Of a DNA stretch of 64,000 nucleotides, positions 39,719 through 63,727 are shown one piece after another. Source of the DNA: an uncultured virus (IMG/VR IMGVR_UViG_3300044859_000256). Lineage: Duplodnaviria; Heunggongvirae; Uroviricota; Caudoviricetes. Location: the IMG/VR virus record IMGVR_UViG_3300044859_000256; one strand, given 5' to 3'. How positions within the stretch are numbered: position 1 is the first letter of the stretch; every line of letters begins with the position of its first letter. Below the pieces are notes generated by a model. It ran no database searches. It was given only the letters and a program-made list of their open reading frames with translations, and had not been told where the DNA came from. The translations under genes were made by a program, and so were the position numbers.

Positions 39719-40004
39719 TTCGATACCCCAACCTCCAAAGTGCCTCGGAGACCCCTAAGGACCCCTCAGCAATCGCTGACTCCACAAGATCTGGATAGGC
39801 AGCATGGAGGAGCTCGTGGACGAGGGTGTCTAGTTCATCCTGAGGCTTCTGCCCCAGGGCTATCCTAATGACTCCTTGGGTGTAGTCACACTGCCCTGCG
39901 GAGTCCCCAAGGTTCGGTACGAACCTAAGAGCCCATTTCTTCCCCCTGACCCGAAGAGTCTTAACGGTCCTCCTCGGACTCCGAGCAGGGTCTCCGCTAG
40001 TCAT
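39708..40004 (-). CDS. Small HExxH metallopeptidase-like protein
   Basis: GQCDY..IRI..DTLVHELLHA. Confidence 0.7.
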   Translation of the reverse strand: MTSGDPARSPRRTVKTLRVRGKKWALRFVPNLGDSAGQCDYTQGVIRIALGQKPQDELDTLVHELLHAAYPDLVESAIAEGSLGVSEALWRLGYRRGS

Positions 40005-54680: not shown

Positions 54681-55340
54681 TTAACCCAGTGATCCATTCA
54701 ATGCCATCCATGATATAGGAAAGGCTTTGGCACAGCAGTCTGAGATTGCTAGTGCTACTTGTCGGCACTCATCCTGTGCGTGTGGGTCAAGACGGAGCTG
54801 ACATACCCTGTTGAAACCATAGAGGGAGCCAGTCCAATACCACTCAGTCATCATAGACTGTGGTAGTACTGTCCTTGCTTGCTCAGGACAGACACCCTCA
54901 TACAGCATGAGCCTGTATGTACTGAGAGAAGATTTGATTGATTCATTATAACACTGTTGTACTAATGCGCTATCCTTCACATACTCAGAGGAGGAGCCTT
55001 GCTTCTTGTTCTCTGCTGCTGCCCTCCAGTTGCTCTGTGGTGACCAGAAGGTAGGCTCATAGTCTACATACCGTCTACTAACTTCGTTCCATGCAAAGCC
55101 AACCTGATGCTTGGCTAGCTGCCTTGCAACAAAGATCGGAGCCTTAATATGGAACTGCAGGGTACAATGGGCAAACGGACTCCAATGCTTATGCTTAGCG
55201 AGATAAGTAATAAGCTTTATATTCTGTAGCTCAGTGTAGTTGGCTGCTTCCTTAGCGAAAGAAACACGAGCAGCATCTACTACGGTATTATCACTACCCA
55301 TTTTGAGTAAGTGTTTTACGGACATCTCTTCGTATATCAT
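54681..55340 (-). CDS. thyX: FAD-dependent thymidylate synthase
   Basis: AARVS, HWSPF, APIFVARQLAKH..NEVSRRY, EQAR.VLP, R...HAQ.E. Confidence 0.95.
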   Translation of the reverse strand: MIYEEMSVKHLLKMGSDNTVVDAARVSFAKEAANYTELQNIKLITYLAKHKHWSPFAHCTLQFHIKAPIFVARQLAKHQVGFAWNEVSRRYVDYEPTFWSPQSNWRAAAENKKQGSSSEYVKDSALVQQCYNESIKSSLSTYRLMLYEGVCPEQARTVLPQSMMTEWYWTGSLYGFNRVCQLRLDPHAQDECRQVALAISDCCAKAFPISWMALNGSLG

Positions 55341-55371
55341 ACTTTTGTTTCTCCGATAAGTGTTTTACTTA

Positions 55372-55404
55372 GAAAAAAGGAAGGGGGATTTCTCCCCCTT
55401 CCTT
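55372..55404 (-). terminator. Intrinsic terminator
   Basis: AAGGAAGGGGGA/TCCCCCTTCCTT stem then T run. Confidence 0.85.
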
Positions 55405-55489
55405 CCTATGGTGGTGACAATAAAGTCAACGGATCTATCTCAGTCAACAAGTGCCGGACTGCTTGGACTAAGACCGATCAATACACCAG

Positions 55490-58115: not shown

Positions 58116-58326
58116 TAAAAATTTCTACATTCATGTTCGGTTGCGGCTCTATGTTACGCATAGAGAAGTCTAGGTACGCAGCTTGTAAGAAGATATCACT
58201 AAGGGCTTCCGTTGGAAACCAAAAGGATATTTTCTTTTTCTTCTTAACAGATGCAGCCAACGCAGTGAACAATCTTACTGCCTCTTCTAGTTCACCCTCA
58301 CTAGTAACTTTAAATACTTTAGTCAT
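58087..58326 (-). CDS. Hypothetical protein
   Basis: ATGA overlap with RNAP stop. Confidence 0.65.
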   Translation of the reverse strand: MTKVFKVTSEGELEEAVRLFTALAASVKKKKKISFWFPTEALSDIFLQAAYLDFSMRNIEPQPNMNVEIFIEGEPDDSD

Positions 58327-60794
58327 TGGAAGAAATACTCCGCATCTAAAACATCCTTAATGTTTAATGAACCAGTAGGTGGTGCATCAGGTACTGTAAT
58401 CTTCAATGCTTTTGATACTTCGATCCGCATGTCATCTAATAGATTGGTCGTATGCATAGCACAGAACTCTTCATTAGTAAACATACGCATTAGATTAACA
58501 TCAGGTGCAGGACAACCATATGAATCATGGATCATACTGAACTGTTCAATACCAGCACCAACCATTCTATATATGGTACACCACATATGACTTGCATCAA
58601 GTGAGTGAATATAGTTAGGGGAGATGGCTAGATTAACTGAGCCACCATCAATTGTTTCCTTATCGGGTGAGCCAAAGTGTAACTCTTTCATATCGAATAG
58701 CTTAGCGACTGATCGTCTAGTTAGTATCTCATAGTATTGATGTACTACTTTAAACCCACACGGGGTAGTCCACTCAACATTCTTACCTAGTTCACTAGCC
58801 ATATCAGCCACCACCTTGAGCCATGCCTTGCCCTTGTTAGCCTCGACCAATGTACCCTTGAGGGCAGCATCAATGAAGGTAGCTAACTCGACAACAGCAC
58901 CAGCAATCTCATCCTTACCAACCCAATCAAGGTGACCCTCAGTCTTACAGTACCTGCGAATACCATAGAAGGTAACACCATAGGGATCAGTCATTACTGC
59001 TCTCTTACAAACAGAGCGGTCAATGTCACCCTCCCAATACTCTATAAATTTTTTCGCCCATTTTCCATTGTTAGTATCTGCATCCTGTACTGACACCATA
59101 TTAGATGTCATCACATCAGCAACATACTGATACAGATCTTCGGGCTTGTTAGTGTGTATGAGGTTAACCTTCTTGGCAAGATAAGGGTCACGCATAAGTG
59201 CAGCCCAATGCTGAACACCGTTACATGAACCATCCATTTGCACAGGCACTTGAGTTAACCCATCAGTACGACACAGATCAAAGACAGCAGCGATACGCTG
59301 GAAGCTTGGATTCTTTTTCTTCTTATGTGATACCCACTCAGAGCGGGTAGCATAGGGATCATCATTGATTCTCTTAAGCATGTCCATGTTATCATCGACC
59401 CACTTAACTCGTTGATCAAAGGTTGTCTTGTCCTGATCGAATAGATTAGCGACATGAATCTTTAACCAATACAAACCAATGGATGTTTGTTTCCTTGGCT
59501 GAGCAAACTGAATAAGACCACGATCAAAGTCACTTGACTGTGGACTAAGTAGATCACATGCTGCATTAGCACGACCACGGAAGTCACAGGTATAAATATG
59601 GTAGAAGAACTTCAGAGGGATTAATGATTGCGCCAGTTTAATCCGGACAAGCATACGACCTCGTGATCGTTCTTCCTTATACCAATTGCTATATGTTTCT
59701 TCCTTGAGCTGACACCACTTAGCCTTCTCTTCTTTAGTCCCATCCTTAGGATAGGGATCAGCAAAGTCAAAGGCTGAGAAGTCATACACGGGAAGGTTAG
59801 CATCTCGTGTGTTGTTCTTAAAGAGTGCAGTCATTATCTCTAGCACCCGCTCATTGATAGACCATTCGGTATGCATCATAGCATTAAGACCAGTGACTAC
59901 TATCTCTGATGGAAGGCTACCATTCTGGTGTACCTTCTCATCCCACATCACATCCTTAAACTTCTGTACTACAGGCTTACGGATATGGGGTAGTAGATTC
60001 CCACCACTACTACTTAGAGTATGTTTAATTGGTGGGATAATCATTGGTCGATACAGCAGGGCAGCGGTAGCAATCACATCCTGATGACGCTTATTAAGTT
60101 CACTCAATATGTCATCAGTAAAGGTAACTACTACACGCTCACTCCATCGCTTGCCTGTATGCTTACGAATGTTCTTTAAGTTAATGACCTCAGACATCTC
60201 CGCTATGCGTAGCATGTGATGACCAAAGTCTTCGCGTTGTTTCCTTGAGAAGGTTTTCTTATTAAGAGTACCCATCTTATAGGCAAACGCCTTGCATCGC
60301 TTAGTAGTCCACTTCTTCTGGTAGTGGGATTGCTTGAGCCAATCCTCACGGAATTGTTTCTTAGCCTGTTGATAGGCTACAATCTCCACTACCATCTCAG
60401 ATATAACATGTGCTATGTGTTGAGCAGTAGGCAATGGGAACAGATCGTTCTCATACTTACGCTCCCAGAAAGCAGAGTTAAACCATTCGAGAATCAGTGA
60501 TCTAATAGTAATGTCTGCCATCTTAGCAGCACCAACAGCAAACAAAGGGAATGCCCATTCAGGTGTCTTCCTATTCTGTGATACCGTATCTATCCATTGC
60601 TGGTAGAAGGGTGTAAGATGGATGACACATGCGTCAATCAATGTTTGCTCAGGGATACCCTCATCAGGGTTAGCATTGTATGCATCCCAGTATTTATGTT
60701 CCGACAGACAAAGCATATCTTCCTCAGAGATAACTTGTAGTGCAGTTCTTTTATCTTGTTCTTCTTTAGATAATGAATCCCACAGTTTAGACAT
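58323..60794 (-). CDS. T7-type single-subunit RNA polymerase (phage B)
   Basis: DFRGR, DGSCNGVQH, RSVCKRAVMTDPYG, PNYIHSLD, IHDSY, YFFQ. Confidence 0.97.
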   Translation of the reverse strand: MSKLWDSLSKEEQDKRTALQVISEEDMLCLSEHKYWDAYNANPDEGIPEQTLIDACVIHLTPFYQQWIDTVSQNRKTPEWAFPLFAVGAAKMADITIRSLILEWFNSAFWERKYENDLFPLPTAQHIAHVISEMVVEIVAYQQAKKQFREDWLKQSHYQKKWTTKRCKAFAYKMGTLNKKTFSRKQREDFGHHMLRIAEMSEVINLKNIRKHTGKRWSERVVVTFTDDILSELNKRHQDVIATAALLYRPMIIPPIKHTLSSSGGNLLPHIRKPVVQKFKDVMWDEKVHQNGSLPSEIVVTGLNAMMHTEWSINERVLEIMTALFKNNTRDANLPVYDFSAFDFADPYPKDGTKEEKAKWCQLKEETYSNWYKEERSRGRMLVRIKLAQSLIPLKFFYHIYTCDFRGRANAACDLLSPQSSDFDRGLIQFAQPRKQTSIGLYWLKIHVANLFDQDKTTFDQRVKWVDDNMDMLKRINDDPYATRSEWVSHKKKKNPSFQRIAAVFDLCRTDGLTQVPVQMDGSCNGVQHWAALMRDPYLAKKVNLIHTNKPEDLYQYVADVMTSNMVSVQDADTNNGKWAKKFIEYWEGDIDRSVCKRAVMTDPYGVTFYGIRRYCKTEGHLDWVGKDEIAGAVVELATFIDAALKGTLVEANKGKAWLKVVADMASELGKNVEWTTPCGFKVVHQYYEILTRRSVAKLFDMKELHFGSPDKETIDGGSVNLAISPNYIHSLDASHMWCTIYRMVGAGIEQFSMIHDSYGCPAPDVNLMRMFTNEEFCAMHTTNLLDDMRIEVSKALKITVPDAPPTGSLNIKDVLDAEYFFQ

Positions 60795-62421: not shown

Positions 62422-62439
62422 GATAGTATCCTTTCTTAG

Positions 62440-62511
62440 TGGGACAGAAGAGACTTGAACTCTTAACCAATCGGTTAAAAGCCGACTGCTCTACCATTGA
62501 GCTACAATCCC
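62440..62511 (-). tRNA. tRNA-Lys(TTT)
   Basis: Cloverleaf; GTCGG-CTTTTAA-CCGAT; GTTCAAGT T-loop; no encoded CCA. Confidence 0.9.
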
Positions 62512-62516
62512 TATAG

Positions 62517-62589
62517 TAGCACGGGTGGGAGTCGAACCCACACTACACAGATTTTAAGTCTGTAGACTCTGCCATTGGTCTACCGTGCC
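62517..62589 (-). tRNA. tRNA-Leu(TAA), short variable loop
   Basis: ACAGA-CTTAAAA-TCTGT; GTGGGTTCGACTCCCAC T-arm. Confidence 0.88.
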
Positions 62590-62590
62590 A

Positions 62591-62644
62591 TAGGTAGGAT
62601 ACATAGCATGATAGGGTCAAAGCCTATTGTATATGCACCTACCA
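62591..62644 (-). ncRNA. Armless tRNA-Gln(TTG)-like RNA (putative)
   Basis: GGTAGG/CCTACC acceptor-like stem plus ATAGG-CTTTGAC-CCTAT arm; no D or T arm. Confidence 0.5.
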
Positions 62645-62647
62645 AAG

Positions 62648-62721
62648 CGTCCCTGACTGGACTCGAACCAGTAACCTATCGGGTAGAAACCGATGCCTCT
62701 ATCCAATTGAGATACAAGGAC
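62648..62721 (-). tRNA. tRNA-Arg(TCT)
   Basis: ATCGG-TTTCTAC-CCGAT; ACTGGTTCGAGTCCAGT T-arm; G73. Confidence 0.9.
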
Positions 62722-62727
62722 AGTGGT

Positions 62728-63159
62728 TTAAAGTTCAGCAACATGCACATCAATAACATCAGCAAGTTTAGCGAATGACATACCATGATCATTCAGTTCT
62801 GCCAAAGAGTCTTGTGCATGTGATGCATTAGTGAATCGTCCAAGTGCATCGTGCATACCTGCCCATTCACGAACACGCAATGGTAACACAAGACTATCAT
62901 TATCATAGACAGTGATAGAGTCATCACCTATACTCAACATCTGAGTGTGTTGAAGGTTCACATCTGACTTACGAGTAACAACCTTAACATCTAATTCATC
63001 AGGGTTCTGTTGCATATACAGATCACACAGTACACCAAGGCAGCAGTACATACATGTCCCATTAATATCTGTGGCATGTAGTTTACCTTGCCCTTGCTGA
63101 TAAGTACCAGACTTAAGAGCATCAACCCATTGCTTAGCAATATCAATCTTCATTGTCAT
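62728..63159 (-). CDS. Hypothetical phage protein (WV.AL.SG.Y.QG..CCLGVLCD)
   Basis: Motif-bearing ORF; start trimmed to MTMKID. Confidence 0.75.
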   Translation of the reverse strand: MTMKIDIAKQWVDALKSGTYQQGQGKLHATDINGTCMYCCLGVLCDLYMQQNPDELDVKVVTRKSDVNLQHTQMLSIGDDSITVYDNDSLVLPLRVREWAGMHDALGRFTNASHAQDSLAELNDHGMSFAKLADVIDVHVAEL

Positions 63160-63421
63160 CTTCCTTATAGTTAGGATCAATAGAGAGAACACGCTTCATC
63201 TCAGTAATATATTCATAACCCGCAGTAATCATTGCACTTTCAAGATGGTCTTCCCTAAAGGTAACATACCCATCAGTCTCCTTGTAATGCTTAGGGTCTA
63301 GTGTCATCTCTTCAGGTGTCCACATAGCAACGGCATACCCTTGCTTACGAATCCAAGAGTATGCTTGGTATACATTCTCTTCAATACTTTCATCCTTATT
63401 ATACACAAAGACATCAGCCAT
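63143..63421 (-). CDS. Hypothetical protein, paralogue of 63414-63638
   Basis: ESIEENV..AYSWIRKQGYAV..TPEE. Confidence 0.65.
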   Translation of the reverse strand: MADVFVYNKDESIEENVYQAYSWIRKQGYAVAMWTPEEMTLDPKHYKETDGYVTFREDHLESAMITAGYEYITEMKRVLSIDPNYKEDDNED

Positions 63422-63651: not shown

Positions 63652-63727
63652 TAGAAGGGGCGGGAGTTGCACCCACATACTCACACTTATAAGGTGTGCG
63701 CTATAACTGCGTTTCAGCCACCCTTCT
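63652..63727 (-). tRNA. tRNA-Ile(TAT) with non-canonical loops
   Basis: AGAAGGG/CCCTTCT acceptor; CACAC-CTTATAA-GTGTG; T-loop TGCAACT. Confidence 0.78.

Follow-up and report, generated by a model that had tools for sequence, protein, structure and literature searches.

Between the tRNA-Arg(UCU) and tRNA-Leu(UAA) genes of this uncultured lake phage, on the minus strand at positions 62591-62646, lies a hairpin of about 55 nt that is under selection, probably as a mimic of a tRNA and not as a functional one. From the comparison of sequences, it constitutes a small, covariation-supported RNA family absent from Rfam. Its above-chance status rests on the single variable column among its 57 in close relatives and on the covariation of its fold in diverged ones. 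Throughout, the window denotes the whole stretch of 64,000 nucleotides that was analysed.

Results

Position and fold of the hairpin

The sequence singled out by the original prediction was found letter for letter on the minus strand (62644-62591), and the fold proposed for it is real, the outer helix, the 5-bp arm and the 7-nt loop all being recovered as the MFE structure (Table 1). An outer helix of 12-13 bp is followed by a small internal loop and then by a fully paired 5-bp stem that closes the 7-nt loop CUUUGAC, with MFE pairing of GGUAGG with CCUACC, of UGCAUA with UAUGUA (U62599 being bulged), two more pairs, and AUAGG with CCUAU; D and T arms are absent. The MFE was -18.8 kcal/mol (z = -3.2), and none of 200 shuffles was equally stable; extending the hairpin by one base gave z = -3.07, with one equally stable shuffle in 200. 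Stability alone is unremarkable, since a sliding fold (60 nt) over the minus strand of the whole window yielded 343 clusters at or below -17 kcal/mol.

In the window the hairpin fills the gap between its two neighbours, as had been proposed: by the ARAGORN and Rfam bounds of the tRNAs (the 3' end of tRNA-Arg is 62648 by Rfam vs 62647 by ARAGORN), it begins 2-3 nt past tRNA-Arg and stops 1 nt short of tRNA-Leu. The U34 theme attributed to the cluster is likewise present in all four tRNAs (Arg, Leu, Lys, and Ile). The true start of the Cys-rich ORF that precedes tRNA-Arg is probably the ATG at residue 14, since its relatives are 141 aa long.

Table 1. Features of the hairpin and of its surroundings in the window.
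Feature	Positions	Strand	Basis and remarks
Whole hairpin element	62591..62646	minus	UUU leader, helix, UA tail; MFE fold, covariance model
Outer helix, 5' strand GGUAGGUGCAUA	62632..62643	minus	MFE partner of 62593-62605; in the original prediction, the 5' half of the "acceptor" and the linker
Outer helix, 3' strand UAUGUA-U-CCUACC	62593..62605	minus	U62599 bulged; MFE fold
Internal loop, 5' side UACA	62628..62631	minus	Same in 5/6 lineages; ACA in L231
Internal loop, 3' side CAUGC	62606..62610	minus	CAAGG in L219, L223, L232, L256; differs in L231
Anticodon-arm look-alike, stem AUAGG/CCUAU, loop CUUUGAC	62611..62627	minus	MFE; "anticodon" UUG = 62618-62620
tRNA-Arg(UCU), upstream neighbour of the hairpin	62647..62721	minus	ARAGORN; Rfam 57.7 bits
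tRNA-Leu(UAA), downstream neighbour, 1 nt past the hairpin	62516..62589	minus	ARAGORN; Rfam 57.0 bits
tRNA-Lys(UUU), last gene of the array	62439..62511	minus	ARAGORN; Rfam 70.8 bits
tRNA-Ile(UAU), first tRNA of the set, three small ORFs before the remainder	63652..63727	minus	ARAGORN; Rfam 53.2 bits
Cys-rich ORF, function unassigned, directly upstream of tRNA-Arg	62728..63192	minus	phrog_18067; database relatives with PF26948

Because no promoter- or terminator-like site sets the array apart, its tRNAs must be cut from a longer transcript. One assembled RNA contig (X19) spans 62508-62796 at a depth of 3.4, contigs being unable to show RNA ends; another, from a relative (X20), stops at 62648, which is the 3' end of tRNA-Arg. 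Processing or a small RNA is visible in neither contig. We rejected two further readings: a T7-type promoter that would terminate on the initial base of tRNA-Leu, because the region meant to confer its specificity is not conserved but covaries with the opposite strand, and a nine-codon ORF within the hairpin, which is not conserved either.

Conservation among close relatives

The window and ten relatives from IMG/VR, with flanks 90.8-100% identical, formed a close set of 11 sequences across which one of the 57 columns of the hairpin was variable, an invariance on par with that of the tRNAs. Control windows of 57 nt located outside RNA genes had a median of eight variable columns, and 53 out of 1523 had at most one. 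Judging from these alignments, the hairpin is under purifying selection among close relatives. The sole change, C62598 to T in L007 and L008, converts the pair with G62638 from G:C to G:U, so that pairing is retained. The zone of low diversity reaches somewhat into the downstream gene.

Diverged lineages and covariation

The architecture is retained in five diverged lineages (L219, L223, L231, L232, and L256), whose RNA polymerases are 80-82% identical to that of the window. When these were aligned with the window lineage (A4, six rows), 89.7% of the cells were paired, vs 28-48% in slid registers. The covariation score of this alignment was 0.575 vs 0.227 in shuffles, a value matched by none of 500, with few independent lineages behind it. 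The inner stem covaries, AUAGG, GUAGG, GAUGG, and GCGGG each being accompanied by the matching partner, and in both segments of the outer helix it is the pairing and not the sequence that is conserved across lineages: elsewhere in the clade this helix has an unrelated sequence and 5-12 bp (8-13 bp in most lineages overall), and it is followed by 3' tails reading UAU, AUAU, UAUAU or UUUAU depending on the lineage. Total pairing is about 13-19 bp, broken by the internal loop, and the lower helix comprises just 8-9 bp in L223 and L256. The covariation of the stems also led us to reject a phage attachment site that includes a fragment of a host tRNA.

The original prediction had suggested a search for homologues with compensatory changes, and these were found in the five diverged lineages, both sides having changed in nine of the 16 pairs. 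What it had named as counter-evidence, a full tRNA-Gln or an unstructured spacer in relatives, bears on the case by half: the relatives have neither, and carry the same hairpin instead. Its null model, a decayed and neutrally drifting tRNA, is disfavoured by the invariance in close relatives and the compensatory changes in distant ones.

The spacing of the hairpin was much less constant than its fold. Depending on the lineage, it lies 3, 10, 29, ~33 or ~320 nt from tRNA-Arg, an ORF intervening between the two in L223/L225, and 27 to ~55 nt from tRNA-Leu in two lineages; in four of the six lineages the helix ends 3-5 nt upstream of tRNA-Leu, with UAU conserved directly before the first base of the tRNA. 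A second hairpin is inserted between the element and tRNA-Leu in L231 and L256, and in L231 tRNA-Arg is degenerate (31 bits, not called by ARAGORN) and tRNA-Lys absent. In its placement relative to tRNA-Arg, the hairpin behaves as an autonomous module. The proposal that it is released through the processing of its neighbours fits the spacing in the window but not that in the lineages with the larger distances to either tRNA.

The apical loop and genuine tRNA-Gln anticodon arms

The apical loop reads C32 U33 U34 U35 G36 A37 C38, as in the anticodon arm of tRNA-Gln(UUG), and with its 5-bp stem and 7-nt loop in the MFE fold the arm is of the canonical type for this tRNA, in agreement with the original prediction. 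CUUU was invariant in all six lineages, G36 and A37 were each present in five, and position 38 was C or A; the upper three pairs of the inner stem were all substituted between lineages while CUUU stayed fixed. Among 330 tRNAs from 260 loci, four of the five genuine tRNA-Gln(ttg) genes have the loop CUUUGAC or CUUUGAA. The 17-nt arm of the window is even identical to the anticodon arm of the genuine tRNA-Gln(ttg) in L027, and the end of its helix equals the acceptor stem TGGTAGG/CCTACCA of the real tRNA-Gln(ttg) in L120; we did not retain these identities as evidence of ancestry, as phage tRNA-Gln genes are numerous and chance would be expected to produce such matches. With the covariance model of the family (R1), the hairpin scored 66 bits and the real anticodon arm in L027 24.4 bits. 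A duplicated arm of the adjacent tRNA-Arg was also rejected, 12 of 17 bases matching in the window (by eye) but L219 offering no match.

The combination of a 5-bp stem, a 7-nt loop, U33 and a purine at position 37 was found in the window, L219 and L223, and in L232 except for an A.C closing mismatch. It was not found in L231, which has U at position 37, a base not seen there in genuine tRNAs, or in L256, whose "anticodon" is UUC because of a 1-nt insertion and the change of G36 to C. The apical part is thus damaged in L232 and L256, the outer helix and internal loop being intact in both; given this damage in two of the six lineages and U37 in L231, the decisive part may be the lower one.

Tests of tRNA status

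In its bacterial mode, ARAGORN called four tRNAs in the window, all of them outside 62591-62646, and it called none of five hairpin variants at the default or at a lowered threshold; the Rfam tRNA model (RF00005) gave no match at the hairpin with E up to 10. In mitochondrial mode, two of the five variants were called as Gln(ttg), and a different two at the lowered threshold, the calls overlapping the adjacent tRNAs. A canonical acceptor end (7-bp stem, conserved end, discriminator, and encoded CCA) is absent, the helix having 5-13 bp of unrelated sequences; an encoded CCA is missing from the hairpin and from the real tRNAs of the phage alike. The "acceptor stem" of the original prediction does not hold as a conserved tRNA feature, and since the outer helices of the relatives are unrelated and 5-12 bp long, its "minimal tRNA" reading is unsupported. 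The geometry of an armless tRNA is nevertheless satisfied, with a 6-bp helix and connectors of 10 and 12 nt as first read (3-4 and 4-5 nt by the MFE fold), the ranges given for mitochondrial armless tRNAs being 3-11 nt for connector L1, 5-14 nt for L2 and 5-9 bp for the anticodon stem (PMC4394434).

Distribution of the family

The family comprises 19 IMG/VR contigs and the window, and is confined to one small clade. In five near-complete genomes, R1 detected one copy in each of four and none in the fifth, and a full tRNA-Gln was absent from all five; in the window its sole other match, of 12.4 bits, was on the opposite strand. A pattern scan of 185,579 prokaryote genomes produced 51 matches, none with five inner pairs and three with four, the latter having an outer helix of at most 2 bp, so that no cellular member was recovered. 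The same pattern in IMG/VR gave 30 matches, corresponding to 16 known members and 14 chance matches (1-2 inner pairs), and no new lineage. Two earlier pattern scans recovered the family from ten close contigs only, one of them together with seven non-family matches; non-tRNA chance matches accounted for six of those seven, and for nine of ten in a further scan. When metagenomes were scanned with an alignment of the protein encoded next to the hairpin, 80 loci were returned, all at 40% identity or less and none of them a close relative. Relatives of this protein with 78-89% identity are present in Logan and ENA assemblies. Our survey of articles on armless phage tRNAs, and on phage tRNA clusters with decoys or mimics of an anticodon arm, found no such element described.

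Discussion

Our preferred reading, which we put forward tentatively and at somewhat less than an even chance, is that of a non-decoding RNA module freed together with the tRNAs, whose anticodon arm of the tRNA-Gln type is presented to some factor that recognises tRNAs; a role in cis, as an element for processing or stability, is almost equally likely. Under the former, the hairpin would be transcribed with the flanking genes and tRNAs on the long early transcript of the phage, and the host enzymes that trim tRNA-Arg and tRNA-Leu would free it as a small RNA, or at least expose it. Once exposed, it would offer an arm of the tRNA-Gln type or, more loosely, of the C-U-U-U type common to tRNA-Lys and tRNA-Glu, which might be read in trans by an anticodon nuclease, a tRNA-sensing defence, a synthetase or a modification enzyme. 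Its role would be that of a mimic or competitor and not that of a translation adaptor. We count against the mimic reading that the sequence of the internal loop is also conserved, which a pure loop mimic would not require, and that we know of no anticodon nuclease specific for bacterial tRNA-Gln.

A narrower version, which we regard as rather unlikely, would make the hairpin an anticodon-arm decoy: a mini-RNA carrying the C32-U33-U34-U35 loop on a stable rod might absorb a host anticodon nuclease or tRNA sensor, or block its activation, while the neighbouring full tRNAs sustain translation. It would be the first example of its kind. Such a decoy is biochemically plausible because the anticodon nuclease PrrC accepts isolated anticodon stem-loops: it is described as recognising mainly the anticodon stem-loop and as cleaving isolated stem-loop analogues (PMC1950546).

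The closest competitor is the cis-acting element, for which the hairpin would be a punctuation in the polycistronic transcript that guides or blocks host RNases, its anticodon-like top being a remnant of tRNA-Gln. RNase P acting on the hairpin, RNase E at the U/A-rich tails, or 3' exonucleases would then ensure the correct maturation of the tRNA-Arg and tRNA-Leu ends and of the adjoining mRNA pieces. This would agree with the outer helix and the UACA/CAAGG internal loop being the best-kept parts, intact even where the apex is damaged, with the short distance from the helix to tRNA-Leu and the conserved UAU in most lineages, and with an array that needs excision from a longer transcript. A Gln gene in such arrays is also plausible, since Leu and Lys are accompanied by a genuine tRNA-Gln(ttg) in L074, a more distant phage array. 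A spacer hairpin would have no need, however, to keep CUUU(G) fixed despite the complete turnover of the stem, and the distances to both tRNAs vary widely, with the extra hairpin of L231 and L256 lying before tRNA-Leu. Moreover, the tRNAs do not need the hairpin, since P-SSM7 and L246 pack Ile-Arg-Leu 3 nt apart without one. We keep the anticodon-arm mimic slightly ahead of this element.

That the hairpin is a neutral relic, i.e., a tRNA-Gln pseudogene or a chance hairpin conserved merely by its conserved tRNA surroundings, appears improbable to us. The apical decay in L231, L232 and L256, the degenerate tRNA-Arg and missing tRNA-Lys of L231, and the extension of low diversity into the downstream gene would all be expected of a relic. 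They have to be set against pair-preserving double substitutions in more than half of the pairs, with a covariation that no shuffle reached, against a hairpin that is invariant where the flanks of relatives differ by up to 9%, and against an architecture that persists across lineages with diverged RNA polymerases.

We consider it quite improbable that the hairpin is an RNase III site as in T7-type early transcripts, a rod with an asymmetric internal loop cut by host RNase III. The setting would suit such a site, as the phage encodes a T7-type single-subunit RNA polymerase, every gene lies on one strand, and the hairpin sits in the early region, upstream of the RNA polymerase gene; its internal loop is asymmetric (4 vs 5 nt), and so is that of the R1.1 site of T7. 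The motif shared by the T7 hairpins is absent here, however, the upper stem has just 5 bp and carries a conserved 7-nt loop, the lower helix shrinks to 8-9 bp in two lineages, and there is one copy per genome in four genomes, with nothing but the weak match on the other strand besides in the window.

Finally, a true armless tRNA-Gln, CCA-tailed, aminoacylated and decoding CAA, is very hard to credit: its secondary structure is within the mitochondrial ranges, a real tRNA-Gln with the same acceptor exists in L120, CAA accounts for 53% of Gln codons in the low-GC portion of the genome, and the helix of the window begins with UGG and ends with CC-U-A, resembling the bacterial tRNA-Gln identity set, but this tRNA-like end is peculiar to the window lineage (the others have UAU, AUAU or UUUAU tails), the mitochondrial-mode calls are overlapping and restricted to two variants per threshold, chance would be expected to yield the matches in L120 and L027 from the collection, and bacterial EF-Tu, ribosome and GlnRS require an elbow and a D arm.

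Two roles are now seen for the tRNA genes of phages, the supply of codons and the fight against tRNA-cleaving defences, and a selected RNA that keeps the anticodon arm alone cannot supply codons. If the hairpin acts in trans, it would show that incomplete tRNA shapes, too, serve phages as mimics, and the search for the host factor recognising the loop would gain a starting point; if it acts in cis, it would be a defined signal for the excision of tRNAs from phage messages. Either way, it is a small and clean RNA family whose loop, internal loop and helix are testable parts.

Comparison with known systems

In its plan, the hairpin resembles the D-/T-armless mitochondrial tRNAs of Enoplea nematodes and acariform mites (group 5), for which a terminal helix, two short connectors, a 5-bp anticodon stem, a 7-nt loop and a total of ~42-57 nt are described (PMC4394434). 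Those are organellar adaptors with demonstrated processing and co-evolved partners, whereas the phage hairpin would face a standard bacterial translation apparatus. In most lineages its terminal helix, of 5-13 bp, is unconserved and bears no tRNA identity marks.

Like the RNase III hairpins of T7, it has an internal loop and belongs to an early transcript, in a phage whose RNA polymerase is of the T7 type. The T7 intergenic hairpins, when folded here, displayed the motif CAAGGUC...GGCCUUUAUGAU, upper stems of 9-13 bp and loops of 3-5 nt at five places in 6 kb; these sites recur with a shared motif, whereas the phage hairpin is single-copy, with a 5-bp upper stem and an anticodon-type loop.

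The RNAC and RNAD of T4, located in its tRNA region, are much longer than the hairpin (~120-140 nt), and to our knowledge neither carries a copy of an anticodon arm. Compared by description, they are like the hairpin in being non-tRNA RNAs encoded with phage tRNA genes and presumably excised by the same enzymes. They are referred to as "RNAs of yet unknown functions" (PMC9697503).

The tRNA-Lys of T5 is reported as a phage tRNA that defeats the tRNA-cleaving defence PARIS (PMC11464382) and offers another parallel, that of a tRNA-type phage RNA with a U34 loop whose selective value may lie in the conflict with host nucleases. Phage tRNAs of this sort are full-length and functional, and they replace the cleaved host tRNA, unlike the phage hairpin. 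Being unable to decode, the latter could act solely as a mimic or competitor.

Anticodon-arm mimics also exist in mRNA operators, such as that of E. coli thrS, which is bound by ThrRS. The settings differ, since the thrS operator lies in a 5' UTR and controls the translation of the adjacent gene, whereas the phage hairpin is in a tRNA array with no adjoining synthetase gene. The likeness is in the device itself, a hairpin copying just the anticodon arm, which in thrS is read by a tRNA-binding protein.

Results

A hairpin between two tRNA genes

On the minus strand of the window, the tRNA array runs tRNA-Arg(UCU), a 57-nt spacer, tRNA-Leu(UAA) and tRNA-Lys(UUU). The original prediction had described an armless tRNA-Gln(UUG) mimic between the first two genes, and the sequence that it quoted was confirmed to be identical to the spacer on the minus strand. 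The minimum-energy fold of the spacer is a single rod-like hairpin (-18.8 kcal/mol, z = -3.2, 0 of 200 shuffles equally stable). This stability alone says little, since 343 hairpin clusters reached -17 kcal/mol or lower when the whole minus strand was folded in sliding windows. ARAGORN made no call at the site, and neither did the Rfam models with E values of up to 10 allowed.

Table. Features of the window and composition of the element in relatives (L numbers are fetched loci)
Feature	Position	Strand	Details
tRNA-Lys(UUU)	62439-62511	minus	ARAGORN, Rfam
tRNA-Leu(UAA)	62516-62589	minus	ARAGORN, Rfam
tRNA-Arg(UCU)	62647-62721	minus	ARAGORN, Rfam
tRNA-Ile(UAU), further upstream	63652-63727	minus	ARAGORN, Rfam
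Cys-rich protein adjoining tRNA-Arg	62728-63192	minus	phrog_18067; database relatives with PF26948
T7-type single-subunit RNA polymerase	58323-60794	minus	at most 28% identity to any cultured phage's enzyme
Terminator-like hairpin, very strong	55367-55426	minus	16-bp G+C-rich stem then UUUUUU, -25.3 kcal/mol
ThyX gene	54681-55340
Outer helix, window		minus	GGUAGG/CCUACC, then UGCAUA/UAUGUA with U62599 bulged; minimum-energy fold
Internal loop, window		minus	5' side UACA, 3' side CAUGC; small, partly paired; minimum-energy fold
Inner stem, window		minus	AUAGG/CCUAU, perfect 5 bp, loop CUUUGAC on top; minimum-energy fold
Element, L219, L220, L226			outer helix 12 bp, GGAUUCUAUGUA / UACAUAGAAUCU; UACA; GAUGG/CCAUC; loop CUUUGAC; CAAGG
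Element, L223, L225			outer helix 8-9 bp, UCCAAGUA / UACUUGGA; UACA; GCGGG/CCCGC; loop CUUUGAC; CAAGG
Element, L232			outer helix 12 bp; UACA; GCGGA/CCCGC (A.C mismatch); loop CUUUGAA; CAAGG
Element, L256			outer helix 8-9 bp; UACA; inner stem with 1-nt insertion; loop CUUUCAA; CAAGG
Element, L231/L054 (L051 same score)			outer helix 5 bp; ACA; GUAGG/CCUAC; loop CUUUGUC; 3' side is a 3-bp mini-hairpin

Conservation among close and diverged relatives

Ten IMG/VR contigs have the same array; their neighbouring protein shares 87-99% identity with that of the window. Only two of the 301 columns of the array alignment vary, one in the leader and the other at C62598, replaced by T in two loci (L007 and L008), where the G62638:C pair becomes G:U. 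Outside the RNA genes, the ten close loci share 90.8-100% identity with the window. Variable columns number 1 of 57 in the element and 0-1 in the tRNAs, against a median of 8 for 1523 flanking 57-nt windows, of which 53 have at most one.

A search with the RNA polymerase yielded 42 loci of graded identity (99-100%, 80-83%, 74%, 67-68% and 45-52%). The diverged set consisted of those covering the array, plus one contig reached via its tRNA-Lys, and the element was recovered in five further lineages of this set, with fold z-scores of -5.6 (L219), -4.6 (L223), -4.7 (L232), -2.5 (L256) and -0.6 (L231). In the lineage alignment A4, whose six rows are few and mutually related and leave out L256, 89.7% of cells are paired, both sides have changed in 9 of 16 pairs and the covariation score is 0.575 versus 0.227 in shuffles (0 of 500 as high). 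Slid registers gave only 28-48% pairing. Owing to its bulge, the window has its outermost five pairs out of register with the other rows of A4.

A covariance model of the element core (R1) scored 42-72 bits in the five aligned lineages and 26 bits in L256. It also matched the anticodon arm of the genuine tRNA-Gln gene of the locus L027 (24 bits), and no other credible match was found over 306 kb. By this model, four near-complete genomes carry exactly one copy each and the fifth, G006 of the 67% clade, has none; the five genomes have three or four tRNAs each, none being a tRNA-Gln. Relatives with RNA polymerase identity of at most 68% were without the element. Scanning 185,579 prokaryote genomes with a degenerate pattern gave zero members, the pattern added no lineage from IMG/VR, and a metagenome scan found no close relative. 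In total, the family was seen in the window and 19 contigs, which represent six lineages of a single clade.

Conserved and variable parts

Pairing is conserved in the outer helix and sequence is not, and the top three pairs of the inner stem are completely replaced and still paired in four lineages. In the loop, numbered as in tRNAs from C32 to C38, CUUU does not vary in any of the six lineages, five retain G36 and five retain A37, and position 38 is C or A. The internal loop is likewise conserved (UACA with CAAGG or CAUGC). The element is a structured RNA selected for its two helices, its loop sequence and its internal loop, and it is single-copy inside a tRNA operon.

Its position in the array is not conserved: depending on the lineage, it lies 3, 10, 29, ~33 or ~320 nt after tRNA-Arg, and the distance to tRNA-Leu is 3-5 nt in four lineages, 27 nt in L231 and ~55 nt in L256. 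Another hairpin sits between the element and tRNA-Leu in the latter two. Both detached lineages are among the three whose loop is damaged, a coincidence that is only anecdotal because the cases are so few.

Several other features were observed in these arrays. In L223 (1166-1458) and L225, tRNA-Arg and the element are separated by an ORF of ~97 codons that has a Shine-Dalgarno-like AGAAAGG; the 3' end of this ORF forms a hairpin, GUAAGAAAAA...UUUUUCUUAC, kept without the ORF in L219 and L232. L231 (1259-1411) has a degenerate tRNA-Arg(tct) (Rfam 31 bits, missed by ARAGORN), no tRNA-Lys, and a 10-nt tandem duplication of the tRNA-Leu 5' end that forms an extra hairpin ahead of tRNA-Leu. The tRNA-Leu anticodon is CAA in the L219, L223 and L232 lineages and UAA in the window, L231 and L256, an anticodon switch inside one orthologous gene. 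In the 67% clade, a weak tRNA called Ile(aat) (G006, L250 445-517, Rfam 34 bits) comes directly after the DUF932 gene, and tRNA-Leu is preceded by coding sequence with no hairpin.

Genome setting and transcription

All long ORFs of the window are on the minus strand; besides the RNA polymerase and ThyX, it encodes a T7-like primase-helicase, a family A DNA polymerase, an exonuclease, a ribonucleotide reductase and a portal protein. Completeness is rated at 93-100% for related IMG/VR records of 62-67 kb, and the public runs containing the window sequence come from lake-water metagenomes. The G+C content drops from ~53% (1-40 kb) to ~42% (40-64 kb), with a step near 40000; large ORFs and the portal suggest virion genes on the first side, with early and replication genes on the second. 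Codon use shifts along with G+C, the codons of all four phage tRNAs being commoner in the low-GC part (AGA 26% vs 5%, UUA 18% vs 4%, AUA 15% vs 7%, AAA 31% vs 13%), and CAA rises only mildly (53% vs 40%).

No promoter- or terminator-like signal delimiting the tRNA array exceeded shuffled expectation, so that the tRNAs are presumably excised from a long transcript. In transcriptional order, the strong terminator-like hairpin listed in the table precedes the ThyX gene. In the RNA run X20, one metatranscriptome contig, from a related phage, terminates exactly at 62648, the 3' end of tRNA-Arg; being a single contig, it is not evidence of processing.

Matches to tRNA-Gln genes and neighbouring arrays

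The genuine tRNA-Gln of L027 shares with the element the 17-nt arm together with 2 and 3 flanking bases, and that of L120 has the same acceptor stem. Because a collection of this size is expected to yield such matches by chance, they do not prove descent. Judged from them, the element is compatible with a tRNA-Gln. CUUUGAC or CUUUGAA occurs in four of the five genuine phage tRNA-Gln(ttg) genes among 330 tRNAs of 260 fetched loci. A distant phage array (L074 960-4280) contains Ile(tat), the neighbouring-protein family, Arg(tct), Leu(taa), a genuine Gln(ttg) and Lys(ttt), thus the tRNA set of the window plus a real tRNA-Gln, with Leu, Gln and Lys packed together; a Gln(UUG) gene is therefore plausible in such arrays. 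In P-SSM7, on the contrary, Ile, Arg and Leu are packed with 3-nt spacers, and the element may equally be an insertion.

The phrog_18067 protein is common across phages, IMG/VR having 579 confirmed stretches, and is often encoded beside tRNA genes. Among the loci L048-L117 and L128-L207, the fetched flanks include a tRNA in 13 of the 70 viral and 15 of the 80 metagenome loci; in several of these, Arg(tct), Leu(taa) or Ile(tat) is directly adjacent.

Discussion

We tentatively propose, as a possible rather than a probable role, that tRNA processing releases or exposes the element, which would then present a tRNA-Gln-type anticodon arm, not for decoding, to a factor reading anticodon loops. Taken more loosely, the loop is of the C-U-U-U type that tRNA-Lys and tRNA-Glu also have. 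Such mimicry is suggested mainly because the loop bases are fixed while the stem beneath them is rewritten and the module keeps its form while shifting relative to its neighbours. The anticodon nuclease PrrC can recognise and cut an isolated anticodon stem-loop (PMC1950546), so a mimic of this size is biochemically reasonable. Against mimicry stand the imperfect loops of three lineages and the conserved internal loop, which it leaves unexplained.

A cis-acting processing or stability mark, which we consider nearly as likely, would explain why the lower helix and internal loop are so well kept and why UAU is conserved ahead of tRNA-Leu, but it leaves the loop constraint and the variable spacing unexplained. 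That the element is a neutral relic is improbable, being contradicted by the compensatory pair changes in A4 and the low variation among close relatives; the covariation and the 1/57 variable columns also speak against the decayed tRNA that had served as null model. A T7-type RNase III site is quite improbable, since folded T7 sites recur with a shared motif and upper stems of 9-13 bp and the element is single-copy with an upper stem of 5 bp. A working armless tRNA is very improbable: the tRNA-like end is not conserved among lineages (the window's UGG...CC-U-A, read by the original prediction as acceptor-like, does resemble a tRNA-Gln acceptor but is peculiar to its lineage), the mitochondrial mode of ARAGORN gave only overlapping Gln calls differing between thresholds, and bacterial translation factors require the elbow.

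The element represents a genuine RNA family under selection, absent from Rfam and from the literature searched; the observation of the original prediction is confirmed and its interpretation is supported in part, the function being putative. Literature searches on armless phage tRNAs and anticodon-arm decoys or mimics brought up no description of an element of this kind.

Among known systems, RNAC and RNAD of T4, which map to the tRNA region of that phage, resemble the element in setting. The thrS operator is a mimic of an anticodon arm, and mimics of this type are among the closest to the element in idea. So are the phage tRNAs reported to counter PARIS (PMC11464382). The function of RNAC and RNAD is still given as unknown (PMC9697503). 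Armless mitochondrial tRNAs, as described in PMC4394434, have a secondary structure that the element matches, but it fails our tests for a tRNA. We place the element, as a new variant with a putative function, among tRNA-derived or tRNA-mimicking RNAs.
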